A stretch of DNA of 64,000 nucleotides from an uncultured Gammaproteobacteria bacterium (GTDB lineage Bacteria > Patescibacteriota > Microgenomatia > JALYQM01). Below are positions 27,267 through 64,000 of this stretch, piece by piece. Location of the stretch: contig CAZHTP010000003.1 of NCBI GenBank assembly GCA_964535655.1, positions 131,396 through 195,395 of the forward strand. The letters are read 5' to 3'. The notes beneath the pieces are model-generated. The model was not told where the DNA came from, did no database searches, and saw only the letters and a list, made by a program, of their open reading frames with translations. Position 1 is the first letter of the stretch. Every line of letters begins with the position of its first letter. The position numbers and the translations under genes were made by a program.

Positions 27267-27311
27267 AGATTTTTAATGAAGATAAACTTGATACATATTA
27301 ACAAATAGCTT

Positions 27312-30868: not shown

Positions 30869-30929
30869 TGTATGATTTACCCTTATTATTCCCTTACAAC
30901 TTGAAAAGTTATGAAAGTTGTGGATGTTA

Positions 30930-31439: not shown

Positions 31440-31450
31440 ATTTTTAATCT

Positions 31451-33172: not shown

Positions 33173-33174
33173 AG

Positions 33175-34971
33175 TTACTTTACAAAAGGATTACCATTTT
33201 CATCGAGGTATCCCAACTCAATTAACGCATCAGCGCCGGTAGGAACTTTGCTTAGGATAAAAACCGGCTCGCCATTTAATCGGTTAATTGTCTCTTTGAA
33301 ATATTTTTTTGAAGTAAGTTCAGAAGGTGTCCCTACTAATAATACTTTCTCCCCTGCTTGCTGTTTGGAAATTTCGTTTCGCCAGTTAATTCCGCGAAAC
33401 TCGAATTTATTAAATCCGTCAACCGTGATGAATCCAAACCCAGTTTCGTCGGTGTGTGCTTTTCGTTCTTTTTGAAATAATGCTGGAGGATACTTTAAGT
33501 AAAATAGTGTTTCAATATACGGGCGTCCCTGACCATCAGTTATAATGATACGGTCGTACTGATCTTTTACCTTAGCTACTTCACTGATCATCTCTTTATA
33601 ACCATATTGCCACTCCTGAGAAGTCCAGTTTGAGTAATGAACATAATAATTATGTAAATAGTAATAGACTGTGGAAGTAAGTATTACTCCAGAAAAAATA
33701 ACCACTAAAAGTGAGCTTACTGTAAAATTACTCACTTTTTTATTGAGCACAGGCCAACCCCACTGCATTTTATTTAAACGATTGATTACATAAATGAAGG
33801 CATAGGCTTCAATGATTTGAAAAGTTGGTAAAATATTTAGACTTCGCAGTGCATGGGGAGTTTCCCTTGCAAAAGCCGCTGGAACTGGTGCTAAAAACAT
33901 CCAACCAAGAATAACTAGCTGTTCTGGCTTACGCCGGGAAAGGAATAGATACAGACCAATAAGTAAGAAAGGTAGCTCAATAATATACAATTCTCCTACA
34001 TCCTGGAGAGAAAAGCGCGGGTTTATATCTCCCGAAATAAATAAGAATTTTCCGGAAAAATGCTGAAAATAACCGTCAATCCAATTTTGAGCATAAATCA
34101 TGCGGCGATTATTTAAAATTTTAGCCCACCAGGTGTTACCTAAGTGCGCAATCCTTTCGTTGGACAGTTCGACAGGAAGAGGATCAGAAAAGATATTAAC
34201 CTCTTTGTATCGTAATTGGCCCTCGTGTGATGCTACATGTGGTACCAGAGGCAAAAGAATTGCCAAGGATATCAAGCTGGCAACAAGAAGTTTTAGCGTG
34301 CTTTTTTTATCATTAAATAACTGCTTACGGTAGATTATTGCCAGAAGAATGACCATGAGGGGTGTAAAGACGCGATTAGAATTGAAAGTGTAAAAGGTTG
34401 ATACAAACGAGATACCCGAAAGGACTAATAATAACGCTTTGTAATTTTCATTTTCAAGCGACTTAAAGAATAAGTAGATTCCCAGTAGTACTAGAAATAA
34501 CGCTACGTTAGCTTCATAGGCAACGCGAGATATCTGGGTATGCCACGGTGAGATAGCAAAGAGAAAGGCTGCAAGTAAAGCAATCCATTCAATTGTATTT
34601 TTGTGTAAGAATGTGGGCTCGTGACTGGCTAGCCTTTTAAGTAGTTGCAGTGTTATTAGGTAGGCTACTATAACTGAAAGCGACCCGAAAAAAGCTGAAG
34701 GAAACCGGGTAGTCCATTCGTTCAGCCCGAAGAGTTTAATCATTGGCACTTCGGAGTAAATATACACTGGAGGCTTAAAGTCTCCAAATGAACGAAAATA
34801 CTGGATTGGCATGAAGGCGCCTTCTTCATCCCGTGCGGTTTCGGAGATTGAATAGGCATTATAGCCAAGGGCTACCTCGTCCCAATACAGGGATGGAGGA
34901 TTAATTCCAAGATGATAAAACCTTAAAACGAAGGCGATACCAATAATTATGATTAAGAGAATTTTTTTCAT
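33175..34971 (-). CDS. GT-C membrane glycosyltransferase, PMT_2 family, paralog 3
   Basis: VLRFYHLGINPPSLYWDEVALGYNAYSISETARDEEG. Confidence 0.75.
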   Translation of the reverse strand: MKKILLIIIIGIAFVLRFYHLGINPPSLYWDEVALGYNAYSISETARDEEGAFMPIQYFRSFGDFKPPVYIYSEVPMIKLFGLNEWTTRFPSAFFGSLSVIVAYLITLQLLKRLASHEPTFLHKNTIEWIALLAAFLFAISPWHTQISRVAYEANVALFLVLLGIYLFFKSLENENYKALLLVLSGISFVSTFYTFNSNRVFTPLMVILLAIIYRKQLFNDKKSTLKLLVASLISLAILLPLVPHVASHEGQLRYKEVNIFSDPLPVELSNERIAHLGNTWWAKILNNRRMIYAQNWIDGYFQHFSGKFLFISGDINPRFSLQDVGELYIIELPFLLIGLYLFLSRRKPEQLVILGWMFLAPVPAAFARETPHALRSLNILPTFQIIEAYAFIYVINRLNKMQWGWPVLNKKVSNFTVSSLLVVIFSGVILTSTVYYYLHNYYVHYSNWTSQEWQYGYKEMISEVAKVKDQYDRIIITDGQGRPYIETLFYLKYPPALFQKERKAHTDETGFGFITVDGFNKFEFRGINWRNEISKQQAGEKVLLVGTPSELTSKKYFKETINRLNGEPVFILSKVPTGADALIELGYLDENGNPFVK

Positions 34972-36620
34972 TTTATTATTTTAAATAATATTCTTTGGTC
35001 ATCTTTTGCTAGAATAGTTTGATTACCAAATGCTGCCTCGGGTGAACCTATAACCAAGGAACTAGGTGGGAGCTTTAAGTCCTCAAAAGATTTATTTTTT
35101 GTATTTATTTCTCCAAAATAATACTTGCCACATTGTACCATCTCAGAACCGGCGATTAAGACTTTTGATTGCGAGCAGTGTTGATACTCTGCTGGGTCGA
35201 GTTTAGAATAAAAAGCATAATACATTTCGGTTTTGCCGTAATACCTGGTTATAAAAATGTGATCAAAGTTGTTTTCTTCGTTTCTTGCATAATTTATTGC
35301 TTCTTTTTGCATGCCATCGTACCAATAATTACCATACACTGGGTAGACATATATATAACGCACTAACCAATTTGAAAATGAGAACGCAAATAATATAAAT
35401 AACATTCTAATTGCTAAAGATTCTGATTTAGCTTTCTTAAAATAATCCAGAAAAAATACTATTCCATATGAAGCAAAGATCATAGGGATAGGTAAAAGCG
35501 CGATACTTCTCAATCCATAGGACTTTCCTACTAAAGCTGTAGGAAAAATTGAGATAAGAATCCACGCTGAGAGAAATATAAACAGTTTTCTATTCCTTTT
35601 GAAACAAACTAAAAGCCCCAATAAGAAAAAAGGTGCTTCGAGTATGTAAAACATTCCATGATTTCCAATGGCATAACGCAATGAACTGTCTCCCGCTACA
35701 TACCAGAATGAAGCCGAAAGATTATCTCCATAAAATTCGAGAAAATCGCGAAGCCAAATATTGGGTTTGTTAAATAAAAGAGAGTTGAGCGCCGGTGGTG
35801 CCAGGGACTGATTACGCATCATAATTACCCGTTCACTCACTTTTGGATCTGAAAATATATTAATCTTGGCAAAACGAGCCTGGCCATTAGAAAATATTGC
35901 CAAATACGCAATAGGTACAGACAGGAGCGCGAACAAGAATATGTATCTTACTGTGAAACGGATGTATTTTTTTGAGTCGAATTTTTTTGTTATCCAAAAT
36001 CCCCAGCTCCATAGCAATACAATGAGCATCGGAACAAAAAGCTTGGTTGTGTAATAGGTATACATCGCGAGAACAAATGAAAAGTTAGACAGTAAAAAAT
36101 GTCGCCATTTTTCAGTTTTGAGCCAGCAAAGGAAAAAATATACTCCTGCTAAGCCAAATGTAAGGGCCATATTAGCTTCATACCCTCCCCTACTTACTAA
36201 GATATGCCAGGGAGAAATTGCTAACAACGCTGCTGCTATTAATGCTAGGTTCTCGCTTCTGATATCGTTTTCTTTGTTCAGGTCAAAAAATGTTGCAAGT
36301 TGTTTTACTATCGCATAGGTAAGATACACTGCAGCGATGCCACTCAGTGCTGACGGCAAGCGAACTGCATAGGCCGATACGCCAAAGACTCTTTCAAATA
36401 TTAGTACGATATAAATATATGCGGGGTTTTTTTGATCTCCCCATGACTCAAACTGAATTGGTAATAGTTTAGAAAATTCATCTTTGCCGGTTTTAAGTAC
36501 CGAATAAGCATTATAACCGATGGAGATTTCGTCGCCATAGAGTGAGGGCATATGACTACCAAGAAAGAGTATCCTGAGTAGTGCGGCAAAAATAATAATT
36601 GTAGTTAGCCATTTATTCAT
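34968..36620 (-). CDS. GT-C membrane glycosyltransferase, PMT_2 family, paralog 4
   Basis: LLRILFLGSHMPSLYGDEISIGYNAYSVLKTGKDEFS. Confidence 0.7.
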   Translation of the reverse strand: MNKWLTTIIIFAALLRILFLGSHMPSLYGDEISIGYNAYSVLKTGKDEFSKLLPIQFESWGDQKNPAYIYIVLIFERVFGVSAYAVRLPSALSGIAAVYLTYAIVKQLATFFDLNKENDIRSENLALIAAALLAISPWHILVSRGGYEANMALTFGLAGVYFFLCWLKTEKWRHFLLSNFSFVLAMYTYYTTKLFVPMLIVLLWSWGFWITKKFDSKKYIRFTVRYIFLFALLSVPIAYLAIFSNGQARFAKINIFSDPKVSERVIMMRNQSLAPPALNSLLFNKPNIWLRDFLEFYGDNLSASFWYVAGDSSLRYAIGNHGMFYILEAPFFLLGLLVCFKRNRKLFIFLSAWILISIFPTALVGKSYGLRSIALLPIPMIFASYGIVFFLDYFKKAKSESLAIRMLFILFAFSFSNWLVRYIYVYPVYGNYWYDGMQKEAINYARNEENNFDHIFITRYYGKTEMYYAFYSKLDPAEYQHCSQSKVLIAGSEMVQCGKYYFGEINTKNKSFEDLKLPPSSLVIGSPEAAFGNQTILAKDDQRILFKIIK

Positions 36621-36693
36621 AAAAATGTTTGCTGGTAAGCCGTTGTAGCCTTAGTATACCATTCCAATCTCTTCAATGATAAACTCAACTTAA

Positions 36694-38430
36694 ATGAATT
36701 TACCGTTACGGCGATTGATACTTGTAAGTATTCTTGCTTCTATTGCATGTCGTTTTTTGTTTCTGGATCGATTCCCGGCAGGAATCTCCCATGACGAAGT
36801 AGAATATGTCTTAAGTAGTGCTTCTTACGCGTTCACCGGTACTGATTTATCGGGTATAGGATTCCCTTTAAGTTTATTTAAAACTGAAACGCATGGGCAT
36901 ATTAGCCCAATACCTCCATTATTTCTGGCTCCTTATTTCTACTTTATTCCAGTGAATCAATTTTCCGCTCGCTTGCCTTATATATTAATTTCTTTACTTA
37001 CTATTTTCGTTCTTTATACGTTGTGTGTATTACTTTTTAAAAGTTCGTCACTGGCTCTGGTTGTAACATTTATCTTTACTGTTTCGCCTTGGGGATTTTA
37101 TTTATCACGCTGGGCTGCAGATACTCCTTTTGCTCTTCTCTTCTTTTTATGGGGAATTTATTTCTTTCTCTCTGAAAATAAATGGAAATTTTCTTCATCC
37201 GTTCTTTTATTTATACTGGGATTTTTTTCCTACAATGGAGCTAAACTATTATTCTTTCCATTACTACTTTTTCTATTGTTTTATCGGTGGAAAATTAACC
37301 GAGCAGGATGGTTTAGTCGTACCATTTTTTTAAAGCTTATTGGCGCGGTCTCGATCTTTTTCTTTGGATATTTTGTAATCAGTTATCTTATACCGGGATC
37401 AATTGCCCAGGAACGCGACTCAGAAATTGTTTTTTTGAACTCAAAATTACTTCAAGAAAAAGTTAATTATCTGCGAGAGCAGGAACTAGAATTTCCACTA
37501 AACTATTTATTTATAAATAAATTTACTGTAGCTCTTCAGATTATGCTGGAAAAATATGTAAGCGCTTTTTCCGCAATTTCGTTATTTGCTACTGGTGACC
37601 CAGATATAGTGTACCGAACTGACCTGATTGGATTATTCCTTCCTTTTGAATTAGTTACGATTTTTGTTGGTATGTATTATCTACGGAGCCGGTATCGTCG
37701 CGAGGCATTCTTGCTTATGGGTCTCACATTGCTCGCTCCCCTTGCCACTACATTAAGTGGCAATTCCACTTCAATTCTGCAGCGTTCGTTTTTGCTTTTA
37801 CCGTTGCTTTCAATTTATAGTGGGGCTGGTATTTACTGCAGTTATCTTTTTGCTTCGCGCTCTATTAACTTCCGCATTGTTTCACTCGTTTGGGGAAGTA
37901 TTATTGGTTTATTTTTTATAACTTTTTTACATTTTTATTTCTTTCAGTGGCCGATGTTATCTTTGGAGGGATTTACCTTACAAGGTAGATTGGGAGCTGA
38001 GTATTTACATAGATTTCCAAAGAATAGTGAGATTAAAGTTATAGCAACAAATAGTCGGGGCGCTTATTTACAATATATATTCTTTTCAGAACCTGCTACC
38101 CAAAGGAAATTCTTTCAAAACCGGTTTGATGATTTCTTACATAAAAATTATTCAATCGAAACTTTACTTTTTACCGATCATTGTCCTGATTTTTCTGAAC
38201 CCGAGTTTTCATATTTAATTCAGCGCGAAGCATCACCGTGTAAGAGAATTGGCTTTCCGAATGCAGAAATCGTGAGCCAACGTGATTTAAAAATGTTATT
38301 GCAAATTCATTCCGATAAAGTTTGTGTTCGTCTGGCTTTGAATGTTACTAAAGCGCGTCCACGTTTATGGGATTTTGACTTTTTAGCTATGAGCAATGAG
38401 AGATTCTGCAGAACCTGGTTAAGTAATTAA
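36694..38430 (+). CDS. GT-C membrane glycosyltransferase, PMT_2 family, divergent paralog 5
   Basis: CRFLFLDRFPAGISHDEVEYVLSSASYAFTGTDLSG. Same architecture, but the most diverged member and on the opposite strand. Confidence 0.6.
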   Translation: MNLPLRRLILVSILASIACRFLFLDRFPAGISHDEVEYVLSSASYAFTGTDLSGIGFPLSLFKTETHGHISPIPPLFLAPYFYFIPVNQFSARLPYILISLLTIFVLYTLCVLLFKSSSLALVVTFIFTVSPWGFYLSRWAADTPFALLFFLWGIYFFLSENKWKFSSSVLLFILGFFSYNGAKLLFFPLLLFLLFYRWKINRAGWFSRTIFLKLIGAVSIFFFGYFVISYLIPGSIAQERDSEIVFLNSKLLQEKVNYLREQELEFPLNYLFINKFTVALQIMLEKYVSAFSAISLFATGDPDIVYRTDLIGLFLPFELVTIFVGMYYLRSRYRREAFLLMGLTLLAPLATTLSGNSTSILQRSFLLLPLLSIYSGAGIYCSYLFASRSINFRIVSLVWGSIIGLFFITFLHFYFFQWPMLSLEGFTLQGRLGAEYLHRFPKNSEIKVIATNSRGAYLQYIFFSEPATQRKFFQNRFDDFLHKNYSIETLLFTDHCPDFSEPEFSYLIQREASPCKRIGFPNAEIVSQRDLKMLLQIHSDKVCVRLALNVTKARPRLWDFDFLAMSNERFCRTWLSN

Positions 38431-51054: not shown

Positions 51055-51690
51055 ATGGTGTATAATAGGCGCATGAAGCCTGCGAGCAAACAGAATGAAA
51101 TGCGTCATGAACCAATACAAGCTCGAAGTGCTCAACGAGTTGCCCATATCCTGGACGTGGCTTCAAAGTTAATTTCCGAAGTAGGATATGACCGAGCAAC
51201 CACTAATGATATTGCTAAACTGGCCGGGGTTCCTATTGGGTCACTTTACCAGTATTTTCCCAATAAACATGCCCTTTTGCATGCGCTTTCAACTCGATAC
51301 CTATCGCAACTAAGAGATTATTTTGTTGAGCAAAAGATCATTACTGATTCTATTCAATTGCATGAGTTTCTTTCTTCTATTATTGATACTTTAGTGGAAT
51401 TTAGGAAGAGCCACAGAAGCTTTAAACAAATGTTCCTTGGAATATATATGAACAACGAAGTGTCTATTGCAGCAAAAACAATGAATGAGGAATTCCGGCA
51501 AATAATATTGAAGAAATTAGAAATAGAGAAGCCTGAGTTAAGTGCAAAGCGGCGCGAGCGAGTTAGTTATGTGTTGTTTGGAATGATTCGTTCGGTATTT
51601 GTGTATCTTTCAGTTATTGATGACACGATGTGGAAAGAAATGAAAGAAGAGACTAAATTCGCAATACGAACGTATCTTTCTGCTGTTTAA
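51055..51690 (+). CDS. TetR-family transcriptional regulator
   Basis: HTH TTNDIAKLAGVPIGSLYQYFPNKHALL. Confidence 0.75.
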   Translation: MVYNRRMKPASKQNEMRHEPIQARSAQRVAHILDVASKLISEVGYDRATTNDIAKLAGVPIGSLYQYFPNKHALLHALSTRYLSQLRDYFVEQKIITDSIQLHEFLSSIIDTLVEFRKSHRSFKQMFLGIYMNNEVSIAAKTMNEEFRQIILKKLEIEKPELSAKRRERVSYVLFGMIRSVFVYLSVIDDTMWKEMKEETKFAIRTYLSAV

Positions 51691-51711: not shown

Positions 51712-54700
51712 TTACTCTTTCCTGAATTTTCTTTTTAATCCTTCCCATATATTTTTAGTTGTATTTGCATTTATTTTTATGGCAGCAATTATTAAACCTA
51801 AGCAAAGTACCACACTGGCAACACTTACAACAGCTTTTATTTTTGAACTTTGACTATTGGCAGGTAAACCAATCCAAGTAGAATTATTTTCTACTCGTAC
51901 TGGGTCTTTGCTGATAGTAATTGTTTCAGCAACTGATCTTCCATAAACTTCCGGAGCGTACATGAGTGAGGCAGTGGCAGGTGGCACTGAAAAGTTTCCT
52001 TCCGATACTACTCGAGCTTTGTAGGTAAACTTATTTTTCCCGGCAGTAATATTGTACACATTAAAAATTATGCCATTGAGCGTCATTTCTCGATCAGAAT
52101 TGTACATTGGGTTGTACGAATAAAGATCTTCTTCACGAGAAGCTACTCCTTGTTCGTTAAGGAATCGCTCGTTAATAGGCACCATCCCCGCTGGTAATTC
52201 ATCTTGTACAACGGCATAATTATTTTCACTGTTTATACCACTTACTGCTATTGTTACTCGAACGATATCCCCCGGTTTAAAAGAATATCCTGGGTTTGTC
52301 ACATTAGTATATGTTCTACCGACTGTTAAGGGATGGTTTACAGCTTTTGCATTTTGATCGGTATGATATTGATCGGCAACGAGCGTTGCATACATTGGCC
52401 CATTATTTTCAGCTTTAATTTCAATCTGCGGTACTGAATCCTTAAGTGGAATATTAATATCCTTAATTTTTTGAGCAGGGCTAGAAATTGTTCCACTGGC
52501 TACTACTTTATTATCTACTAGCACCGAATATCCATACTCAGAATTGGTTGTATTTTCGTATTGAGAAAAATCCGACAAAGCTCGGATAATCTGTGCTGTG
52601 GCAAAGGTGTTGGACCAATAATAATTGTTTCTTGTTTGCGTTAAGTACCTTACTGCTTTAGTCACTATGGAGGTGTCCCCTTTTGCTGTAAGAATGGCAT
52701 GAATAGCCATAGCTGTTGATGCATTGATTGAGCCAAAATGCTTTTTATCTCCAGCTGCCCAGAATAAGGAGTCTCCTTGCTGCTTGGCACTCGCGTAGAG
52801 CGAATTTAGTCCGTTGGTTTGAGGATTGGTGAATCCGTTTAAGGTATTGGCGAGTACTCCAAGGGCAATAATATCTGGGGTTTGAGACTGGAAATTGTAT
52901 TGGGTTAGTTCGCCCTTATTTTTTGTTGCTCCGGCAACAGTACTTGCATAGGTCTTAGATATCGTTTGATCAATGGTATATGGAATGTCTACAACTTTTC
53001 CAATAATTGAATCATAATAATTGGTTCCGGTAGAATCTAAGAAATATTTTGCCTTAGTGAGCATCGTGTCATCAACCGTAACCCCCAGTTGCTTTGCTTT
53101 CATGAGATATTCTATTACATACCCGGTGACAAAATAATCTGGTTTTGAATCGTACCACCAACTCCATCCTCCATTTGCAAGTTGAAGCATCTCTAAACGT
53201 GTTACACCTTTTGCCAGAATATCGTCGATGTCTTTACCTTCTAATGCATCTTTAAATAAGGCAGGATTAGACTTAGCAATTACTGCTGGGACAAATCTAC
53301 TTGTGGTCTGCTCAACGCAACCATACGGATAGTCTATTAGGTATTTGGCGCCACTTGGTACTGTTCCTACTAGACTTGGGGAAAGAGACAGGGTTAGCTT
53401 TGACTTACTTACATCTAAATCTTTTCCTAATACCGGAGTTAGTTTCCCTGGACTATTTGCAATTTGGCCGGTTTTTTCCAGAAAACTAAATGCTTGAACT
53501 GGAATTTCTGAAATTATTGTGTCGCTCAATTCTGCATTGTTTTTTTGGATTGCAGAGAATGTTAATTTGGATTTAAGATTCTCTTTATCTGGAGAAACTT
53601 CCCAGAAAAATTCTTTTCGTTCGTTAGCAAGTAGCGTTTGTTCTGGATACATTGCCTTAGTAAGTGACCCGGAATCGAAGCTTAACCCAACATCAACTGT
53701 TTGGGGCGCGTCGGTAAAGTTTTCGACAAACGCAGCAAGAACGGCTTTGTCACCTACACGCAAAATATTGGGTACAATGGGTCGTACTACAATGTCTTTG
53801 GTTACTCTTATTTCGGCAGTAGATTGCCCAACTTTTGCATCGTCGGTATTGCTTACTGCCGCTACGACCCAAGTTGTTAAATTATCTGGTAATTTAAAGG
53901 AAACTTTTGCTTTACCAGTACTGTCGGTATAAATACGAGGGTTCCAATAGGCAGTATCTTTAAATACGCTTCGTACCGACCCGCCGTCACCTTTTTGATT
54001 ATGTACCCAAATATTGTTGGCAAAAAATGTATGATATTTCTCGACTTCGAGATTATATACATCTTGCGTGCTAGCTTGGTATTCAATGGAGTTTACTATC
54101 TCTGTACTTCCGTCGGAATGAACTAGCGTATCGCCAATAGTGATACTACCTGCTGGTTTCCATGAAGTATTAACTGCAACAATGTGATCGGGGGTAACAT
54201 ACAAATTACTATTTAGAATTATTAAATCAGTGTCTTTAGCGATGTGCGTGGCTGTTACTTGTGCTGCAATAAGTTGCTTATCTGTAGGGCTAACTCGTGT
54301 CAAAATTTTATCGCCTGCTTTGATATCTTCAATATTCCTGGTCTGACCATTGGCCATTAATACTTTTGTACCTTTGGCAAAACATCCACCGCCACCCCCA
54401 AAAGGGTCACTGATAATTCCTTCGAGTGAGTGATCAGTTCGCGTTGCATCGTATCTTTCTGACCAGAACGTACTGTGGATATCTCCAAGTGTTGAAGTAC
54501 TTAATTCGAAGATTGCCTTATCCACGCTCCACAGCGCAGTCTCAGCGGCTATAGGTGTTCCCCTATAATCTGTCGTTTGGACAGTTACACTGACTGTATC
54601 TCCTGGACCATAGCTTTGGCGATCGGGAAGTACTTTGACCATGACTTTTTTAACAGCGGTATTAAGTGGGATTTTTATTCTGCTGTTGTTTAGATCATTG

Positions 54701-56838
54701 AGATTAAAGCTTAGCGCCTCAAGATACAGATTAGGTAAATCGGAGTCCTGGAGGGGAAGCTCAACATTTGCGGATGTTCCATTGAGGTGTACCACTTGAT
54801 ACCGATGTACATACTTTCTCTGAAAAGATAAGAATACGTCACGATCGGGAATTTTTGATGTAATAGCAAGCTGAACCGTGTCTGTTGGAAGATATTTCTC
54901 TTTATCTATACTTAGCGTTAGATTTTGTTCTGATGAGTTTTCCGTGTATATTGGTTCACCTTCTTTTCGAGCGTAATAATAAAATGAATTTGTTACATTG
55001 TTTCCGCGTGCGTCCTGGGTTGAAACGCCGATAGTATATGATCCACTTTTATTGGGTGTGAAATTGATACTGGCTTTGCCATTGCTATCTGAGATGGTTG
55101 ATGTCATAGGATAATCTTCGCTATCTTTTCGAAAGGAAGTATATTTTTTATCTGGTTCCTGATAAGGAATCCAAGTTTCACGATGGATGCGAACTATTAA
55201 CTTTATTCCACTTACTGTTCCGTTACCAATATGTTTGGCTAAAATGACTGGTAGTGATACCGGTGAATTAACCGTCGTGCTGTACGAATTATCTGTTCGA
55301 TAGATGCCGAATTCTCCGGGATAGACGAGTACATTTTTTCGCGCGAACGTAGAGGGCTGAGTTTTATCTGCGAGGCTTACTTCTATTCCAAATATTTTAC
55401 TTTTTCCGTCCGTAATTTGCCCTTTAGTTGCAACCGCTACTTTTGACTCACCATTTGCATCAAGCTTTGAAGTACTCTTTAGGATATCTTTACCTGACCA
55501 ATATCCGTACCGGTACGTGCTGTCTACATTACTGCCGGCATCAGAATAATAGCTGTAATCCCCGTAATCTGAAGCATTGATTTTATAATTAAGTAATTCT
55601 TTGGATAGTGGTTGTCCTGAAAAAAATAATCCTTTTAAGGTGAATGCTACGGTATCTCCTTGAATAAGTTCGGTAATGGGAGCTGCGATATCTAAGAAAT
55701 ATTCTGGTTTTTTGTAGAAATCTACTTGAATTGGAGTGCTACTTTCGTAATTGTAGGTGGTGTGATCGGTGCTTAATGACACCGAGACCATATAGTCTCC
55801 CGTTGCTACGTTTTTTGGTAGAGGGATTTGACCGAATACTGCACCTCTATCAACTGGGAAGATTTTATCGAAAACTGGGCTTTCCTCACTGTACGATTTT
55901 GTAATTTTTACTCGAGCTGTCCCCGTAGAGGCGGAATACATGGCATCATCATCATCGCGAATAATTGCCTTAAAATTGACCGCATCACCCGGTTTATATA
56001 ATGGTCTATCGGTAAAAACAAAATATTTTGTTGTTGGCTGTGATTTACTATATGAAATATAATTATAGTTCAGATTAAGATATTGCATGTTTAATGGGAT
56101 TAACGCGACATCGCCATCCACTTCAGCAAGGGCAATATCTGCGCCCGGAGTAATCTCAGCCTTCCCTACGCCTGAACTATCGAAGGTGCCACTTGAAGAT
56201 ACCGCTATTTGGTCTTTTAGGTTGTAGACTTTGATCGTCCCTGAATTTATACTCCGCTTAGTTTTAAAGCTTTGCCCCCAGAATAAGAACTCGTTCTTAG
56301 AATCTTTTACCGTTACTCCATATGTTGAACGTACAATCATTGCATCATGAAAGATATTCCCTGAGATGATGCGTACAAAATAAATCCCTCTCTCCGCTAA
56401 AGGAAGACTAACTTTTGTTCCATTTGTAAGATCCTGAGAGAAATTACTGATACGATTTAACTGTGATACGTCGGAGGTCGGATTTAATTGATTGGAATCT
56501 TTATCGTGGGTAAGATATTTTAATAGATAGTTTGTATCCGCCTCGTAGACAGAAATTTCTACCGACTTTTGGTTAGTTTGATCATTGATACTGATTGCTG
56601 GCTCCTGCGTGGAGTTCATTGATATTACCGAACCGCCAGAGAATTTACTTTTCTCAGCGGGAATCGTGACAGTATCGACGCGGCTTTCCCCCCACCAGCC
56701 TAAGACACTACTGCGAATGTAGAAGATGTTAAGTGCCGAGCAAGTAGCGAGCATAATTGCAAGCGCGGCTAGTGCTCCTGAAGTGTACAAAAGTGACTTA
56801 TTTGTCCATTTATTTTTGCGTGTTTTTCCTTTAACCAT
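51712..56838 (-). CDS. alpha-2-macroglobulin-family thioester-containing protein (1708 aa), membrane anchored, carrying an inserted Hint domain
   Basis: Thioester motif DYPYGCVEQTTSRF (Cys codon 53317-53319, ~residue 1174). N-terminal signal-anchor/lipobox-like IMLATC. C-terminal TM plus basic tail. Long beta-rich MG-like N-terminal region. Embedded Hint domain (separate feature). Confidence 0.75.
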   Translation of the reverse strand: MVKGKTRKNKWTNKSLLYTSGALAALAIMLATCSALNIFYIRSSVLGWWGESRVDTVTIPAEKSKFSGGSVISMNSTQEPAISINDQTNQKSVEISVYEADTNYLLKYLTHDKDSNQLNPTSDVSQLNRISNFSQDLTNGTKVSLPLAERGIYFVRIISGNIFHDAMIVRSTYGVTVKDSKNEFLFWGQSFKTKRSINSGTIKVYNLKDQIAVSSSGTFDSSGVGKAEITPGADIALAEVDGDVALIPLNMQYLNLNYNYISYSKSQPTTKYFVFTDRPLYKPGDAVNFKAIIRDDDDAMYSASTGTARVKITKSYSEESPVFDKIFPVDRGAVFGQIPLPKNVATGDYMVSVSLSTDHTTYNYESSTPIQVDFYKKPEYFLDIAAPITELIQGDTVAFTLKGLFFSGQPLSKELLNYKINASDYGDYSYYSDAGSNVDSTYRYGYWSGKDILKSTSKLDANGESKVAVATKGQITDGKSKIFGIEVSLADKTQPSTFARKNVLVYPGEFGIYRTDNSYSTTVNSPVSLPVILAKHIGNGTVSGIKLIVRIHRETWIPYQEPDKKYTSFRKDSEDYPMTSTISDSNGKASINFTPNKSGSYTIGVSTQDARGNNVTNSFYYYARKEGEPIYTENSSEQNLTLSIDKEKYLPTDTVQLAITSKIPDRDVFLSFQRKYVHRYQVVHLNGTSANVELPLQDSDLPNLYLEALSFNLNDLNNSRIKIPLNTAVKKVMVKVLPDRQSYGPGDTVSVTVQTTDYRGTPIAAETALWSVDKAIFELSTSTLGDIHSTFWSERYDATRTDHSLEGIISDPFGGGGGCFAKGTKVLMANGQTRNIEDIKAGDKILTRVSPTDKQLIAAQVTATHIAKDTDLIILNSNLYVTPDHIVAVNTSWKPAGSITIGDTLVHSDGSTEIVNSIEYQASTQDVYNLEVEKYHTFFANNIWVHNQKGDGGSVRSVFKDTAYWNPRIYTDSTGKAKVSFKLPDNLTTWVVAAVSNTDDAKVGQSTAEIRVTKDIVVRPIVPNILRVGDKAVLAAFVENFTDAPQTVDVGLSFDSGSLTKAMYPEQTLLANERKEFFWEVSPDKENLKSKLTFSAIQKNNAELSDTIISEIPVQAFSFLEKTGQIANSPGKLTPVLGKDLDVSKSKLTLSLSPSLVGTVPSGAKYLIDYPYGCVEQTTSRFVPAVIAKSNPALFKDALEGKDIDDILAKGVTRLEMLQLANGGWSWWYDSKPDYFVTGYVIEYLMKAKQLGVTVDDTMLTKAKYFLDSTGTNYYDSIIGKVVDIPYTIDQTISKTYASTVAGATKNKGELTQYNFQSQTPDIIALGVLANTLNGFTNPQTNGLNSLYASAKQQGDSLFWAAGDKKHFGSINASTAMAIHAILTAKGDTSIVTKAVRYLTQTRNNYYWSNTFATAQIIRALSDFSQYENTTNSEYGYSVLVDNKVVASGTISSPAQKIKDINIPLKDSVPQIEIKAENNGPMYATLVADQYHTDQNAKAVNHPLTVGRTYTNVTNPGYSFKPGDIVRVTIAVSGINSENNYAVVQDELPAGMVPINERFLNEQGVASREEDLYSYNPMYNSDREMTLNGIIFNVYNITAGKNKFTYKARVVSEGNFSVPPATASLMYAPEVYGRSVAETITISKDPVRVENNSTWIGLPANSQSSKIKAVVSVASVVLCLGLIIAAIKINANTTKNIWEGLKRKFRKE
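53998..54384 (-). other. Hint (Hedgehog/intein-like, BIL-type) autoprocessing domain, ~129 aa, embedded in the A2M-like ORF (residues ~819-947)
   Basis: Starts with GGGGG-CFAKGTKV (a G|CF junction as in Hedgehog/intein block A). Ends ...FANNIWVHN-Q (intein block G hVHN; +1 residue is Gln, not Cys/Ser/Thr). Mini-intein size. Confidence 0.65.
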
Positions 56839-56888: not shown

Positions 56889-57647
56889 TTATTGCGGTGA
56901 TGCTCCGAAGAATCTGGCAATTTGAAATGCTATAAGTGCCGCACCAATGCCAATGGCGACCATCTGGATTCCTTGTTTTTTCCAATCTCCAACGAGCGTT
57001 ATAGCTTGATACGCCCCTACCCCAAATAGAGCTAGCGAGCTTATTCCTAAAGAGGTATAAAAAGCTGGTCCGTCTGTAAAAAAGAAATAGGGGAAAAGTG
57101 GAATTAACGAACCAATAATCGCTGCAAAACCAACGATAACAGACGTTTTTAATACATCTTTGATTTCAACTTTCTCTAAATGCAACTCTTCTTGCATCAT
57201 TGTGTCCAACCAGACATGCTCATTGGAGGTTATTTTTTCGACGACTTTTTCTAATAATTCGCCCTCAAAACCTTTAGCAATGTAAATATCCCGAATCTCT
57301 TGTTTTTCAATTTCAGGGAAATTTTTTATTTCATCGATCTCTCTTTGGCGTTCTTTAACATAATGATCTCTCTCAGATAAAAAGGAGGTATAGGCTACTG
57401 CAGCCATCGAAATTGATTCGGCGAATGCTGCGGCAAGCCCTGCAGCAATGAGAATTCTTTTATCTTCGGTTGCTGCGGCGACTCCTAAAACTACGCCAAG
57501 GACGTTAACAAGGCCGTCCTGACCTCCGAGTATTACATCGCGTAAGGCCGTTGAAGATTTATGTTGTTCAGGATGCGTTGGTGCTATTTTTGTCATGGGT
57601 TCATTATATACCGCTTGAGCGATGGTTATTGCAAGTAAGTAAATCAC
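56889..57647 (-). CDS. VIT1/CCC1-family iron/manganese transporter
   Basis: LRDVILGGQDGLVNVLGVVLGVAAAT and a C-terminal TM cluster. Confidence 0.7.
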   Translation of the reverse strand: MIYLLAITIAQAVYNEPMTKIAPTHPEQHKSSTALRDVILGGQDGLVNVLGVVLGVAAATEDKRILIAAGLAAAFAESISMAAVAYTSFLSERDHYVKERQREIDEIKNFPEIEKQEIRDIYIAKGFEGELLEKVVEKITSNEHVWLDTMMQEELHLEKVEIKDVLKTSVIVGFAAIIGSLIPLFPYFFFTDGPAFYTSLGISSLALFGVGAYQAITLVGDWKKQGIQMVAIGIGAALIAFQIARFFGASPQ

Positions 57648-57657
57648 CGATTATGCT

Positions 57658-59508
57658 ATGGGCATGAAAAAACCACTTATGCTTTTTATAACGCTTTTTA
57701 TGCTTGTCTTTCCTGGCACGGTTGAAGCGAAAAGTTATTATTTTCCTTCAGTTTCAATCGAAGCACATATTAATCGCGACCGAAGTATGGATGTAGTGGA
57801 AACTAGGACTGCATATTTTGACGGTACATATCACAATATATATTGGGATATGCCGTTTACTGTTTTCAAAAAACCGAATTCAGTATCTCTTTCAGAAGTA
57901 CGATCTGGTAGCGAAATTCCCTATGTTGACAAAGTTGGCGATGTTAGCCCTGGAACTTTTTCAGTAACTCGAGGTGCTGATATTCTTCATATAGAGGGAC
58001 ATTACGAAGCATACAATGAACAAAAGCAGTTTATACTTCATTACTCTGTCGAAGGCGCGGCCTCAAAATATGATGATGTCGGTGAATTGTACTGGAAAAT
58101 GATTGGCGACGGCTGGGGAGTAAAAACCAATTCAGTAACCGTACGTGTTTACTTACCTGAAAGTGTAGCGGCAAATCAGATATACGTATGGGGACATGGA
58201 CCACTAAATGCTCAAGCAAAGATTATTGACGGACAGATGACTGAATTTACTTCAACTGGACTTCCTGCCAATACTTTTTTTGAAATCCGCGAGCTATTTC
58301 CATCTACTTTACTTGATGGTACTGCGCAATCTGGTCAGCATTTAGAAACTATTATAGCTGAAGAAAAAGCCTTTCAGGATAAAACTACATTTCAAGCCTG
58401 GCTTGTGATAATTGGTATTTTGTCTTTGATAGGTATTCTGCTGGCATGGGGGGTGGGGTGGTATTTCCTATGGCTTAAATATGGCAAGGAATATAGCGCG
58501 AGTGATGTTCCTGAGCATGTAACTTTCCCGCCTAGTAAGCTTGCTCCTGCACTTGTTCAGCAGTTAGTAAATCAAGGGACAGCAGTTGATACTAATGCTT
58601 TTTCAGCAACCATACTTGACCTTGCAAGGCGCGGATTTATTAAAATTGAAGAATCACCGTATACTAAGGAATCTTTTTTACATTTAAATGACACTACCGC
58701 ATTTCGTTATACCTTACATGAACAGGAAGATGCAGTTGAAAAAAGCAGGAATGAATTTTATCCATTTGAACATTCCTTACTTGGGTATATTTTTATGCGA
58801 GGTCCGGTTGTAGATATGGATACGATTCAAAAAGAGATGAAAGATGATCCCCGGGCAACTAAAGCTTTCTTTGATTCATGGAAGAAAATGGTTGAGGATT
58901 CGTCAGATCAAAATGCGTTTATTGAACCGCAGAGCAAAAATGTGCGGATGATTTTTTCAGTTTCAACAGTTGCGCTTATACTAGTAGTTATTTTTCTGTT
59001 TTTCTGGAAATCATTACTTGCATCGGGTGCGATCTTTCATTTTCTATTGTTTGGAGCATTCCTAGTATCTGTACCGGTGGGTTTTATTGGCAAGCTTTTC
59101 TTGCGCTGGGATAAGGTGTCGCGAAGGGAGGCTGCTGAGTGGACAGGGTTTTCTAATTATTTACGTGATTTTGGTCATTTTAAAGATACGGTTCCCCAGG
59201 CAGTGATCATTTGGGAAGACTTTTTGGTATACGGCACAGCTTTGGGGTTAGCGCAAAAAGTCTCAGGATATTTGCCTATGATTCTTGCTGCTGATCCACA
59301 AGCCGTGCATCCGGTCTGGTTTTATTCAAGTGCTGGCTCTAGTGGTGGTTCAATTGGAGATTTTAATGCTAATTTTGCGACAAGCATTTCGAATAGCTTT
59401 GGCTCTTTTTCTACCGCTATGAATTCTTCCTTCAGTACTGGTTCGGGAGGAGGATTCTCGGGTGGTGGAGGTGGCGGCGGCGGCGGTGGTGGTGGTGGCG
59501 CGAGTTAG
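57658..59508 (+). CDS. DUF2207-like membrane protein with C-terminal poly-glycine tail
   Basis: Signal peptide, extracytoplasmic domain, TM helices. The C-terminus FSGGGGGGGGGGGGGAS is typical of DUF2207 proteins. Confidence 0.5.
   Translation: MGMKKPLMLFITLFMLVFPGTVEAKSYYFPSVSIEAHINRDRSMDVVETRTAYFDGTYHNIYWDMPFTVFKKPNSVSLSEVRSGSEIPYVDKVGDVSPGTFSVTRGADILHIEGHYEAYNEQKQFILHYSVEGAASKYDDVGELYWKMIGDGWGVKTNSVTVRVYLPESVAANQIYVWGHGPLNAQAKIIDGQMTEFTSTGLPANTFFEIRELFPSTLLDGTAQSGQHLETIIAEEKAFQDKTTFQAWLVIIGILSLIGILLAWGVGWYFLWLKYGKEYSASDVPEHVTFPPSKLAPALVQQLVNQGTAVDTNAFSATILDLARRGFIKIEESPYTKESFLHLNDTTAFRYTLHEQEDAVEKSRNEFYPFEHSLLGYIFMRGPVVDMDTIQKEMKDDPRATKAFFDSWKKMVEDSSDQNAFIEPQSKNVRMIFSVSTVALILVVIFLFFWKSLLASGAIFHFLLFGAFLVSVPVGFIGKLFLRWDKVSRREAAEWTGFSNYLRDFGHFKDTVPQAVIIWEDFLVYGTALGLAQKVSGYLPMILAADPQAVHPVWFYSSAGSSGGSIGDFNANFATSISNSFGSFSTAMNSSFSTGSGGGFSGGGGGGGGGGGGGAS
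59461..59499 (+). repeat. (GGN)13 glycine-codon microsatellite
   Basis: ggtggtggaggtggcggcggcggcggtggtggtggtggc, encoding 13 consecutive Gly. Confidence 0.8.
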
Positions 59509-60823: not shown

Positions 60824-61402
60824 TTAAGATATTTTAATATCTAAACTGCGGAGTAAGGATAGAGCTTCAGGAATGGTAAAGGTGGCTTTGGCAATTTTAT
60901 TTACCTTAAAGTCGATGGCATAATTTGACGCGTTGGTAAAATCTGCTTTGTTGAGATTAGTATTATGGAAGGTGCTCTTTTCTAAATTGGTGTGCTTAAA
61001 ACTCGCTTCGTGGAGATCGGCATTAGTGAAATCTGTTTCTATAATTGTTGAATTTTCAGCAATAAATTTCTGAGTTTTACATTCAAAAAAACTGCAATAG
61101 GAAAGTGTACAGTTATTGAATGAAAGATAGTCTAAACTATCTGCATCAGTGAAGACTATTCCGGTTAATTTAACGTTTGTCATTGTTGTATCGCGAAAGA
61201 CAGTATTGGGTAGCTTGCAGTTTAAAAACTGGCAGTTAGTGAACCTACAGGTATCCAGGCGGCAACGATGCATTGATGTTTCACTAAAAATACACTTATC
61301 GAAGGAACATTTTTCAAAGGTGACGTCATCATATTCTTCATTTTCAAGCTGGATATCTTTAAATTTAGTGTCGTAATATTCTGATTTATCGAAGAAATTC
61401 AT
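60824..61402 (-). CDS. pentapeptide-repeat protein (Qnr/MfpA-like fold)
   Basis: Tandem A(D/N)LxX-type pentapeptides: ADLHEASFKHTNLEKSTFHNTNLNKADFTNAS etc.; Cys-rich N-terminal half. Confidence 0.7.
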   Translation of the reverse strand: MNFFDKSEYYDTKFKDIQLENEEYDDVTFEKCSFDKCIFSETSMHRCRLDTCRFTNCQFLNCKLPNTVFRDTTMTNVKLTGIVFTDADSLDYLSFNNCTLSYCSFFECKTQKFIAENSTIIETDFTNADLHEASFKHTNLEKSTFHNTNLNKADFTNASNYAIDFKVNKIAKATFTIPEALSLLRSLDIKIS

Positions 61403-63090
61403 AAGGTATCTGCTCCCTCACCAATAATTTTTTCGTTTCTTGAGAAAAAGAACATTGTCGGATTGCGGATTTCATTTTCAAATCCAACAAATAATATTTT
61501 CCGACCTTGTTCAGTATTTTTTTGCACTGATGAAATATCTTTGGTGAAATAGAATTTCCCAAATTGGCTCGTAAAATTTAATCCGTTTTGGTCCGGTGTA
61601 TGATTGGTTACCGATTGTGACTGGAAGACTTGAGGATCATAACGCATAAACCACGCATAAAAAATGTACATTGGAGCTTTGGAACTTGAAACTATTATCT
61701 GATCGTACTTATTTTGACTCTCAAAAGCATACTGCACTTCATACTTAATACCATCATTCCATTTTTCTGCAACATAGTGTGGAGTAACTGTAAAATATTG
61801 GTTGTAAAAATACCCAACATTAATAAGCACGAGTACCGATGCAATGGGAATTAGTATGACTGACATTTTTCGTCGAGGGAATTTTTCTTGAAACCATTGG
61901 TAGGCCACAAGGCTTCCGTACGCTGCAATAATTACTAAAGGAATAACCATGTTTTGAGCTCGTGAGATGCTGGGAGTGAAAATGGTAAAGGCCGAAGCAA
62001 CTGGACTGATTAAGAGCCAGCTTAGAATTAACCATATCCAGGGTGGTCTATTTTTTATACATGCATACATGCCTATGAGTGTTACGGGAAGTAATATCAA
62101 TGGGAGAAAACCAATTCCAATAATCTGAAAGATTTCAAACACATCGCCAATAACAAAAAGAAAATTAAAATCAAAGTGTGAGAGATAGCGTTTTGCATAA
62201 TCCATAAAATAGAATAAGGGTTTATTATGCAGAAACTGAGTTATTTTAACGGGTTGGCATGAATCGGAACGAATAGCGTCAAATAGCCTGGCATCTACGC
62301 CCTTGTCATAAAAAATACTAATATATTTAGCTCGTTGCGTTACTTCGGGGGTTCGAATGGCTTTTAGAATGGGTAGACAAAAGATAAACGCGAGAACCAA
62401 ACTTAAGCAAATAGTTATGAGCGTGGCCCGAGACTGCAATTGTTTCATAATTTCTTTGCGATAGATACCAATTAGACTGAGTCCAAATAACGGAACGAAA
62501 ACCCGCGCGGAGTTATATGCATAGAGAGAAAGAGCGAATGAAGTTACAGCTAACACATAGTATCCGCGAGAAAAAGCGGAACCTATTTTGGCATGAATGG
62601 CTTTTAGAAAAAATACGGTACCAATAGTTATATAAAATAAGGCTGGAGTAAGTTCCCATGTTCCTCGTGAGACAAAAATGTGGGCTGGGGTTATTGCTAA
62701 AAATAAGGCCGCTAGTAAAGAAAGATAGTCGTTTTCTTTTTCCCTTCTTAGCTCACGCATGAGTAAATATACTGCGACAATTGTACCTGTACCATACAAA
62801 ACTCCTGGTAAACGTGCGGTCCATTCGGATGCTCCAAACAACGCAAATGAGCCGACAATTGAATAGAGCATGACTGGTAATTTGAAATCTCCGAAGGCCT
62901 CTGCGGTTATAGGTAAAAAGACTCCGTGTTCGTCTTTACCGGTTTTTAAAATAGAGTAGGCGTTATAGGCGTAGCTTGCTTCATCGGAATAAAATCCGGG
63001 AGGATTGGCCTGTAATTGGTGCACTCTTAAGAAAAACCCAAGACAAACAGTTGCGACAAGTGGGTATATTTTGTTTTTCATTCTTGCCAT
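61399..63090 (-). CDS. GT-C membrane glycosyltransferase, PMT_2 family, paralog 6
   Basis: FFLRVHQLQANPPGFYSDEASYAYNAYSILKTGKDEHG. Confidence 0.7.
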   Translation of the reverse strand: MARMKNKIYPLVATVCLGFFLRVHQLQANPPGFYSDEASYAYNAYSILKTGKDEHGVFLPITAEAFGDFKLPVMLYSIVGSFALFGASEWTARLPGVLYGTGTIVAVYLLMRELRREKENDYLSLLAALFLAITPAHIFVSRGTWELTPALFYITIGTVFFLKAIHAKIGSAFSRGYYVLAVTSFALSLYAYNSARVFVPLFGLSLIGIYRKEIMKQLQSRATLITICLSLVLAFIFCLPILKAIRTPEVTQRAKYISIFYDKGVDARLFDAIRSDSCQPVKITQFLHNKPLFYFMDYAKRYLSHFDFNFLFVIGDVFEIFQIIGIGFLPLILLPVTLIGMYACIKNRPPWIWLILSWLLISPVASAFTIFTPSISRAQNMVIPLVIIAAYGSLVAYQWFQEKFPRRKMSVILIPIASVLVLINVGYFYNQYFTVTPHYVAEKWNDGIKYEVQYAFESQNKYDQIIVSSSKAPMYIFYAWFMRYDPQVFQSQSVTNHTPDQNGLNFTSQFGKFYFTKDISSVQKNTEQGRKILFVGFENEIRNPTMFFFSRNEKIIGEGADTL

Positions 63091-64000
63091 TCTCCTATTT
63101 TGAACCCAATTGAGTTGTTACTCATTTTAAGTTCTTGCGGATATTTAAACTGGTCTGGAGTTCCTTTCCATCCATTAATAACGACTATATCGCCGTTTTG
63201 TGGTTTAATAGGTGCGCTTTCCGTATAAAATATGTATCTTGAGTCTTTCGTAAAATTATTTTGCGATGCATTAAAAAACCGAATATACTCCATAGTCTTA
63301 GGATCTGCTTCTATCAGTATTTTTTTCTTTGTACTGTAGTCTCTTGCAATTACTTCACCCAAGAGCGTTTGGTTTTCTGCCCAATCCCAGGAAGTTTTAT
63401 ATACATAATGTTTGTAATAAACGTGTAGGTACGTAACAAACGAGAAAGTAAAAAGAATTACCAATGTAAACTGGAGTCCAATAATACTTACTTTTTTATA
63501 TGCAACTATATGTCTGTTGAGCCAAATAATACTTTCAGTAATTCCTACTGCAGTAGCTATTGTTAACGGTACAAGAAGCGGTAAGGAACGGAGAGCATGA
63601 GGGACCGGTGTGGCAAGACCAGCGGGGAATGGTGCAACAACTAACCAGAGTAAGAGCAGTTTGCTTTGTTGTGTTTTTTCGCGAGCAAGAATTATTAGGC
63701 CAATTACCATAAAAGGCAGCTGCGATAAAAACATTTCACCAACTTCGCGCACTGAATGACGAACTACAATATCTCCTTCGAAGAATAAAAAGTTAGCAGA
63801 AAAATGGGTTAGATATTTTTGTAGGACTCCTAACAAGGCTCCTAAATAATACTGTTTATTCTCTAGCTCAAATACTTCTCTGACCCGTGCTGATTCATTC
63901 CCAAAAACCGAACCTAGCAAGGCTGACGCTATTATGATAAATAGTATGCCAAAACTGACTGAAACAATTCGTTTATTTTCCAATAAAGATAATTTCTTCC
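63078..64000 (-). CDS. GT-C membrane glycosyltransferase, PMT_2 family, paralog 7; 5' partial (N-terminus beyond window end)
   Basis: The C-terminal half aligns with the other paralogs: FFEGDIVVRHSVREVGEMFLSQLPFMVIGLIILARE...PFPAGLATPVPHALRS. The frame stays open through 64000. The track M at 63983 is a TTG within the open frame. Confidence 0.6.
   Translation of the reverse strand, partial: KKLSLLENKRIVSVSFGILFIIIASALLGSVFGNESARVREVFELENKQYYLGALLGVLQKYLTHFSANFLFFEGDIVVRHSVREVGEMFLSQLPFMVIGLIILAREKTQQSKLLLLWLVVAPFPAGLATPVPHALRSLPLLVPLTIATAVGITESIIWLNRHIVAYKKVSIIGLQFTLVILFTFSFVTYLHVYYKHYVYKTSWDWAENQTLLGEVIARDYSTKKKILIEADPKTMEYIRFFNASQNNFTKDSRYIFYTESAPIKPQNGDIVVINGWKGTPDQFKYPQELKMSNNSIGFKIGEWQE

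Follow-up and report, generated by a model that had tools for sequence, protein, structure and literature searches.

A type-A intein-like Hint domain in the bait region of an alpha-2-macroglobulin-family protein from an uncultured bacterium

The 64,000-nucleotide stretch of DNA analyzed here (assembly GCA_964535655.1, contig CAZHTP010000003.1, forward-strand positions 131,396 to 195,395; hereafter the window) contains a gene for a 1,708-residue protein of the alpha-2-macroglobulin (A2M) family in which, according to Pfam, a Hint domain is embedded. This domain (residues 819-947), overlooked in an earlier reading made from the letters of the DNA (the sequence-only reading), is located in the bait region of the macroglobulin. 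It has every sequence and fold characteristic of the type-A bacterial intein-like (BIL) domains, so that activity in cleavage or splicing is predicted. Most likely, the Hint would process the bait by itself; the outcome may be firing of the thioester, maturation only, or transfer of the acyl group of Gly818 to an amine.

The gene and the parts of its bait region have the following window coordinates:

51712-56838, minus strand: whole gene, a single uninterrupted open reading frame of 1,708 amino acids in the open reading frame list; stop codon at 51712-51714
54385-54447, minus strand: left bait linker, residues 798-818, ending in GGGGG, with Gly818 as the −1 residue of the Hint; AlphaFold2 pLDDT below 50 for residues 798-816
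53998-54384, minus strand: Hint domain of the type-A BIL kind, 129 residues (819-947); Pfam, TIGR01443, PDB, AlphaFold2 and Foldseek
53956-53997, minus strand: right bait linker, residues 948-961, QKGDGGSVRSVFKD, with Gln948 at +1, Lys949 at +2, and Arg956; AlphaFold2 pLDDT below 50 for residues 949-961

An identical 1,708-residue protein was recovered twice, from an NCBI contig of 232,710 bp and from an independent Logan assembly; the gene is therefore real and not an artefact of assembly. A chimera was rejected on the same ground and because more than 160 homologues share the architecture.

Position, fold and conservation of the Hint domain

Pfam places the Hint between the A2M_BRD and A2M/MG7 domains. 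Three Pfam models, PT-HINT (the best), Vint and Hom_end_hint, scored above their cut-offs, as did TIGR01443 (intein C-terminal region) above its own; in NCBIfam such intein-type models were the only matches, and no model covering this A2M lineage was found. The best PDB match by sequence is a BIL domain of Clostridium thermocellum (2LWY, E = 4e-11), followed by a Hint from Streptomyces (8W20, E = 9e-11) and then by RecA mini-inteins. In an AlphaFold model of residues 700-1060 the Hint is confidently folded (pLDDT 82-96) and hangs between two beta-sandwich domains on the two linkers, whose low pLDDT values are given above. The top Foldseek matches of the folded domain are Tetrahymena BIL2 structures 6TMM and 6Y75 (TM-score 0.80-0.82, E = 2e-11); 2LWY superimposes with a TM-score of 0.84, an rmsd of 1.8 Å and 31% identity, and mini-inteins rank next. 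By the alignments the linkers holding the Hint are short, Gly-rich and conserved, and by the model they are disordered; they may be accessible to proteases. The segment following the Hint, SVRSVFKDTAYWNP, aligns with TVRKYFPETWIW (TVRKYFPETW), the motif that in human A2M comes after the bait, and the Hint ends 6 residues upstream of it; the Hint thus lies within the bait region proper. No second Hint domain was found in the 64-kb window.

We counted residues in 107 full-length Hint-bearing homologues and in 54 representatives from a library of 1.84 billion proteins (161 in total), and examined motifs in an alignment of 56 sequences. The junctions in the window protein read ...SLEGIISDPFGGGGG / CFAKGTKVLMANG...VYNLEVEKYHTFFANNIWVHN / QKGDGGSVRSVFKDTAYWNP..., with slashes at the ends of the Hint. 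All four intein blocks are present: Cys819 (block A), T882-x-x-H885 (B), V927-Y-N929 (F) and H946-N947 (G). Cys1 is invariant (107/107 and 54/54), the terminal Asn occurs in 107/107 and the His-Asn pair in 54/54, and Thr882, His885 and His946 do not vary in the 56-sequence alignment; not one catalytically dead copy was seen among the 161 homologues. The −1 residue is Gly in 107/107 and the −2 residue in 103/107, with GG ahead of Cys1 in 52 of the 54 library representatives. At +1 the 107 homologues have Q (51), D (23), E (22), G (7), N (3) or K (1), and never Cys, Ser or Thr; over the whole set this residue is Q, D, E, G, N, K or L in 158 of 161 and Ser in three, Gln948 being the residue of the window protein. 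Lys at +2 is near invariant (106/107 and 53/54), Gly follows at +3 in 104/107, and Arg956 is found in all 117 full-length homologues.

BIL domains are defined by the lack of a +1 nucleophile, and type A is distinguished from type B by its C-terminal His-Asn (PMC4031507). The window Hint shares with 2LWY the fold, Cys1, TxxH, the block F Asn (VYN), His-Asn, the missing +1 nucleophile and an extracellular host protein; it differs from BILs of that type in its A2M host, its bait site, its conserved flanks (GG before, x-K-G after), its single copy and its vertical inheritance over a large radiation. The canonical mini-inteins (Mtu RecA, DnaB) have the same fold and the same blocks A, B, F and G, but here there is no +1 Cys, Ser or Thr, no conserved site in an essential protein and no trace of a homing endonuclease. 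A canonical intein of class 1-3 was accordingly rejected: Gln is at +1, a nucleophile appears in 3/161 only, the site is Gly-rich and non-conserved, and the domain, at 129 residues, is too small to include an endonuclease. Pretoxin-HINT domains of polymorphic toxins and the Hint of Streptomyces UmbC are autoproteolytic release modules of secreted proteins. They are close in sequence, PT-HINT being the best Pfam model and 8W20 the second PDB match; there, however, a C-terminal toxin is released, while the window protein has MG7-CUB-TED-MG10 and no toxin domain downstream of the Hint.

The nearest relatives of the Hint outside A2Ms (31-42% identity; P0122-P0141) form tandem arrays of 2-13 Hints in large surface proteins carrying PKD, Big_9, cadherin-like, LamG, CARDB or pilin-like modules. 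In these arrays the +1 residue is Lys in 71 of 138 Hint copies.

About 110 of the 120 closest proteins (35-58% identity) have the Hint at the identical site. Named carriers among them are Gottesman-, Davies- and Woesebacteria, the ‘Patescibacteria group’ and one member of Limnocylindrales; GTDB species representatives with this architecture come from Daviesbacteria, Microgenomates, WWE3, Moranbacteria, Roizmanbacteria and others. Distant relatives of the Chloroflexota type (~27% identity) have no Hint. A second, deeply diverged Hint-bearing clade (L023, L025, L026 and L029; 2,100-2,285 residues, 24-25% identical to the window protein) has the junction GGSGGG/C...VHN/QKG, which matches that of the window clade. 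Several contigs with Hint-bearing A2Ms (L007, L013-L015, L017, L026) are titled Gammaproteobacteria, Nevskiaceae, Bdellovibrionales or Bathyarchaeia. These titles are mutually inconsistent; such labels of metagenome-assembled genomes look unreliable, which calls for caution over an apparent spread beyond the Candidate Phyla Radiation (CPR).

No other segment of the protein is conserved as well as the Hint (mean pairwise identity 0.538 versus 0.446-0.511 in other regions). The Hint and the remaining sequence have diverged in parallel (Pearson r = 0.80), and the GC content of the Hint, 37.5%, is close to the 39.8% of the gene, so that, as judged by sequence, the Hint is inherited vertically with its host protein; a recent mobile insertion was rejected for the same reasons.

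Hint-less CPR members are nested among the Hint-bearing ones, in seven separate groups in 39 of 40 bootstrap trees, all built by neighbour joining only; clean loss of the Hint has happened at least six times. In the closest pair of a Hint-less and a Hint-bearing protein (P0116 and L016, 68% identity outside the Hint) the sequences are ‘AEMGG/GGNEG’ and ‘SEGGG/C..HN/GKGGGG’. The losses are clean, and the ‘x-K’ dipeptide is removed along with the Hint. Runs of GGN codons flank the Hint block (window 53990-54400, minus strand: GGG GGT GGC GGT GGA/TGT...AAT/CAA AAA GGT GAC GGC GGG), and such direct repeats may mediate recurrent clean deletions. Clean loss is possible, yet more than 90% of lineages retain the Hint, as the best-conserved segment and with no dead copies, which argues for selection on the reaction itself.

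The thioester domain and the membrane segments

Outside the bait, Pfam identified the A2M domains in the order MG2, A2M_BRD, A2M/MG7, TED_complement and bMG10, each above its gathering score; it is the order expected of an alpha-2-macroglobulin.

55726-56028, minus strand: MG2 domain, residues 271-371 (PF01835, E = 1e-15, above the gathering cut-off)
54502-54921, minus strand: A2M bait-region domain (A2M_BRD), residues 640-779 (PF07703, E = 3.3e-11)
53689-53955, minus strand: A2M/MG7 domain, residues 962-1050 (PF00207, E = 2.8e-19)
52459-53367, minus strand: thioester domain (TED), residues ~1158-1460 (PF07678, Pfam match over residues 1158-1267)
51949-52296, minus strand: C-terminal MG10 domain (bMG10), residues 1515-1630 (PF17973, E = 8.8e-20)

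The solved structures closest in sequence are those of Escherichia coli ECAM/YfhM (E = 1.4e-25) and Salmonella SaA2M, with human A2M, TEP1, C4 and C5 among the further PDB matches. Pfam, PDB matches and the AlphaFold2 fold agree on an MG scaffold of the A2M/thioester-containing superfamily. Taken by itself, the A2M belongs to a known family, in which it is divergent, and is of the type-I bacterial kind.

The thioester motif reads Y1170-P1171-Y1172-G-C1174-V-E1176-Q1177 (GCVEQ, residues 1173-1177, window 53308-53322). C1174, E1176 and Q1177 are kept in 117/117 full-length homologues, Y1170 in 116 and Y1172 in 108 (with an aromatic residue in 116); in the MG10 domain M1626 is kept in 116 and Y1627 in 117. 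Met1626-Tyr1627 (window 51958-51963) would be expected to shield the thioester. Together with P1171, all these residues are conserved in 108-117 of the 117. In SaA2M the pocket is built of Tyr1175, Tyr1177, Met1625 and Tyr1626, and ECAM has an equivalent one (PMC4498604); the Tyr/Tyr/Met/Tyr pocket of the window protein is intact and matches both, and formation of a thioester is predicted. A degenerate thioester was rejected because all pocket residues are conserved. An AlphaFold model of residues 1130-1660 (pLDDT 86, pTM 0.77) has its best matches in native ECAM and SaA2M (TM-score 0.70-0.71), while against protease-activated ECAM the score is only 0.35-0.38; C3 and C5 are also among the fold matches.

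Thus the window protein has in common with the type-I A2Ms the MG scaffold, the bait domain, a CxEQ-bearing TED, the C-terminal MG domain and the pocket; they are its nearest relatives in both sequence and fold, and the PBP1c neighbour known from them recurs in the sister Hint clade. The sequences are only distantly related, though. ECAM and SaA2M have a lipid anchor and a variable, protease-sensitive bait; here hydrophobic segments at the two termini take the place of the former and a conserved Gly-rich linker with a Hint that of the latter, and there is no pbpC in the window.

The two terminal segments are as follows:

56716-56838, minus strand: basic N-terminus MVKGKTRKNKWTNK and hydrophobic segment, residues ~16-41 (KD19 maximum 2.03)
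51715-51840, minus strand: C-terminal transmembrane helix, residues 1667-1687, and basic cytoplasmic tail, residues 1688-1708, ending in KRKFRKE (KD19 2.82)

At the N-terminus a hydrophobic run of ~26 residues directly follows the basic stretch. Since the run is long, a signal-anchor seems a better reading than a cleaved signal peptide, though cleavage may occur. At the C-terminus the 21-residue hydrophobic stretch, followed by the tail KINANTTKNIWEGLKRKFRKE, starts 37 residues past the end of the bMG10 match (residue 1630) and so lies outside it. Of the 120 closest homologues, almost all have hydrophobic segments at both ends and the basic C-terminal tail.

The sequence-only reading had described a thioester-bearing A2M tethered at both ends, and much of that description holds. 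The Pfam domains and the GCVEQ motif bear out the identity of the protein, and comparison with SaA2M and ECAM shows that the surroundings of CxEQ are not degenerate. The N-terminal segment is real, given its hydropathy, basic N-terminus and presence in nearly all homologues. The C-terminal helix with its KRKFRKE tail also stood up to scrutiny; the position of this stretch past the domain and the family-wide basic tail rule out the alternative that it is a beta strand of MG10. One element did not survive, the lipobox-like LATC. It has a non-canonical Thr at −1, the hydrophobic stretch runs on beyond Cys33, and Cys33 is not conserved: most homologues have exactly two Cys in ~1,700 residues, none N-terminal and both at thioester-forming sites. 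We therefore rejected the lipoprotein reading. An ectodomain between two membrane segments fits hydropathy and conservation best, as had been proposed; it would be a cell-surface ectodomain of ~1,625 residues held between the N-terminal segment and the C-terminal transmembrane helix. What is truly unusual, however, is the Hint in the bait with its predicted autoprocessing, rather than the double tether.

Proposed self-processing of the bait and competing explanations

Ordinary A2Ms are triggered when their disordered bait is cut. The cleaved bait of ECAM, no longer tethered, pushes the thioester domain off the C-terminal MG domain, and the thioester becomes exposed (PMC4498604). With an autoprocessing Hint in the bait, the expected mechanism shifts away from that of a plain protease trap, and we propose self-processing because the only known chemistry of a Hint is to break peptide bonds at its own two ends. 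After export, the Hint would perform an N-S acyl shift at Gly818-Cys819, and Asn947 would cyclise. As the +1 residue is Gln, not Cys, Ser or Thr, canonical splicing is impossible and cleavage would dominate, as it does in characterized BILs. The bait would then be severed by the protein itself, with no attacking protease, and two chains would result, each with a membrane segment at its outer end, provided that the N-terminal segment is an anchor that is not cleaved off. Release of the bait stretch QKGDGGSVR956... by the C-terminal cut would be an equivalent of the untethering event in ECAM. The BIL domains tested so far give mainly cleaved products (PMC7664689, PMC4031507). We infer that autoprocessing would occur, that cleavage would prevail over re-ligation and that the thioester would be primed or fired by it; for self-cleavage of the bait with this outcome our confidence falls slightly short of even.

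Several considerations speak against this scheme. The Hint was lost cleanly in six or more lineages that kept the thioester and both anchors, one of them (L020) with its Memo-like neighbour gene; the protein works without the Hint, which fits equally well a domain that merely splices itself out. Re-ligation may instead be what the invariant GG ahead of Cys1 and the near-invariant +2 Lys are for, and a Tetrahymena BIL does form a Lys isopeptide (PMC8616854). If the protein activated itself constitutively, with neither timing nor regulation, the thioester would be wasted, and there is no evident regulator. The C-terminal transmembrane helix occurs in 15 of 18 Hint-bearing GTDB loci versus 0 of 52 Hint-less loci, but this link is phylogenetically confounded: Hint proteins of the second clade have no such helix, Hint-less derivatives keep it, and a single clade, or shared ancestry, explains the distribution, so the co-occurrence is not independent support for cleavage. 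Finally, the N-terminal segment may be removed as a signal peptide. Two homologues from Patescibacteria, L021 (5746-10395) and L022 (5704-10809), have all catalytic residues of the Hint and have lost the thioester Cys, so that Cys1 of the Hint is their sole cysteine; the role of the Hint is therefore not solely to fire the thioester.

The Hint could instead excise itself and have the halves of the protein rejoined by attack of an amine, either the alpha-amine of the +1 residue or the epsilon-amine of Lys949, on the Gly818 thioester. The product would be an A2M of one chain whose bait is short and Gly-rich, as in the Hint-less relatives; it would act as an ordinary protease trap, and the Hint would have no role of its own. 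Type-A BILs are able to splice without a +1 nucleophile, attack by the +1 alpha-amine having been proposed (PMC4031507), although they yield mainly cleavage products (PMC4031507, PMC7664689). The closest structural match of the Hint is the very BIL that forms Lys isopeptides (Foldseek; PMC8616854), there is hardly any variation in the GG at −2/−1 or the Lys at +2, the protein tolerates repeated clean loss of the Hint, and the bait of Hint-less proteins looks as expected after excision (compare P0116 with L016 above). However, deletion is accessible, given the GGN repeats and the seven losses, so a useless element should vanish far more often, or decay, while more than 90% of lineages keep it with all catalytic residues intact and as the best-conserved segment. 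Besides, in contrast to intein sites, the site of the Hint is neither conserved nor essential, and no homing endonuclease is present. We consider such a passenger possible but rather unlikely.

In another version, the Gly818 thioester is resolved by an external nucleophile, a Lys or a hydroxyl group on a surface protein of a host or on the cell's own wall; the N-terminal half would become bonded there, much as cholesterol is attached by the Hedgehog Hint and a ubiquitin-like domain by Tetrahymena BIL2, with the TED thioester bonding the C-terminal half. The ubiquitin-like N-terminal flank of BIL2 in the BUBL system ends in Gly-Gly. The invariant Gly-Gly before Cys1 resembles this acyl donor, and BIL2 is the best structural match (PMC8616854). 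Related BILs stand in tandem within adhesin-like surface proteins, the two cysteines retained in ~1,700 residues are both at thioester-forming sites, and L021 and L022 keep the Hint despite the lost TED thioester. BIL2 (6TMM/6Y75) transfers its N-terminal flank to a Lys epsilon-amine (PMC8616854); it is, however, eukaryotic and cytosolic and conjugates ubiquitin-like domains, and the use of Lys by the A2M Hint is only putative. Against the external nucleophile, the near-invariant Lys949, right beside the junction, is a likelier, intramolecular acceptor, and the conserved Asn947 and His946 would not be needed for pure acyl transfer. Hedgehog-type Hints, for instance, have no C-terminal His-Asn. 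A second warhead of this kind seems to us improbable.

The Hint might also be catalytically silent, a folded plug in the bait, with activation left to a foreign protease that cuts the linkers. In complement C3, C4 and C5 an anaphylatoxin domain occupies the position of the bait, and its proteolytic removal triggers exposure of the TED; a globular domain is thus tolerated at the equivalent place. The complement proteins belong to the same superfamily, C3 and C5 being fold matches as well; they rely on an external convertase and on chains held together by disulfides, whereas in the window protein the cut is predicted to be made by the inserted domain, and no cysteines are left for disulfides. 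The predicted disorder of the flanking linkers, which contain Lys and Arg, would suit cutting from outside. The residues for both junction reactions are all invariant in the homologues examined, which is unexpected of a purely structural module, and an inert Hint is very improbable.

Returning to self-cleavage of the bait, one could speculate, as an unlikely extension, that the Hint acts as a built-in ‘convertase’ of a C3-like thioester protein that fires itself by a timer or a chemical cue, maybe with two warheads, the Gly818 thioester and that of the TED. An episymbiotic CPR cell might in such a way bond covalently to the surface of its host or to its own envelope instead of trapping proteases.

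Genomic setting and significance

The genes next to the A2M gene are these:

51055-51690, plus strand: TetR-family regulator, convergent (PF00440 and PF17918); no shown functional link
56889-57647, minus strand: VIT1-family transporter, upstream (PF01988, E = 9e-58); no shown functional link
57658-59508, plus strand: DUF2207 membrane protein, beyond VIT1, ending in an uninterrupted run of 13 glycines (FSGGGGGGGGGGGGGAS)

Pfam confirms the TetR and VIT1 flanks named in the sequence-only reading. The order VIT1, A2M, TetR, NUDIX is common only to the window and its closest relative, L002. No PBP1c-like gene was found in the 64 kb, with neither a GT51 motif nor a tblastn match to three class-A PBP queries, in agreement with the reported absence of a pbpC partner; Memo-like and PGA_cap genes were not found in the window either. 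The statement that the gene sits alone is thus right for the window but not for all of its relatives, some of which have a Memo-like or a PBP1c-like gene alongside. In the clade of the window, 12 of 18 informative loci, and also the Daviesbacteria locus, have a Memo-like gene (PF01875) immediately downstream of the Hint-bearing A2M, a conserved partnership; its product carries a hydrophobic anchor at the N-terminus, and its start often overlaps the A2M stop codon (L004, 13066-15022; L009-L017, L022, L024, L027). In five loci a PGA_cap/CapA gene stands beside it, and in L022 the two are fused. On its upstream side the Daviesbacteria homologue adjoins a gene for a rhomboid intramembrane protease (L004, 7302-7958), which is not conserved in the other loci examined.

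In the second Hint clade, whose members have no C-terminal transmembrane helix, a PBP1c-like gene (Transgly, Transpeptidase and BiPBP_C) is directly upstream (L025, 1722-4124; L026, 1959-4205; L029, 2216-4048), and such a gene adjoins the A2M in 15 of 59 Hint-less relatives. Association with PBP1c is the classical link of bacterial A2Ms (PMC5764988). Given these neighbours, the link is present in the wider lineage; it was lost in the clade of the window.

Most of the window is a region of cell-envelope glycosylation. A cluster of GT2/GT4 glycosyltransferases occupies 700-24172 and includes a 944-residue protein with fn3 and a C-terminal CBM60 (16846-19680, minus strand); at least seven paralogous genes of PMT/PMT_2 (ArnT-like) membrane glycosyltransferases stand in tandem at 25755-38430 and 61402-63117.

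The sequence-only reading had taken the genome to be CPR-like. This is plausible and not proven: the A2M nests among Microgenomates-labelled sequences, while the neighbouring PIF1 helicase gives no decisive signal, its named matches at 52-57% identity being scattered over Dojkabacteria, Peregrinibacteria, Omnitrophica and Armatimonadota.

A full-text search of the literature found no description of a macroglobulin with a Hint, intein or BIL domain, CPR/Patescibacteria included; proteins of the CPR with A2M domains come up there only as a possible protection from proteases of the host (PMC8080830). To our knowledge, what is new is the combination of Hint and A2M at the bait and its conservation over a large radiation, the A2M family and the BIL class each being known. 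All studied A2M and complement proteins that we know of are triggered by the cut of another protease. If self-processing is true, it would be the first case of protease-independent arming or maturation of a thioester protein. A bacterial intein-like domain would then also have a definite task in the cell, a question standing since BILs were described. CPR/Patescibacteria live attached to other cells and the biology of their surface is little known; the architecture described here is widespread among them.

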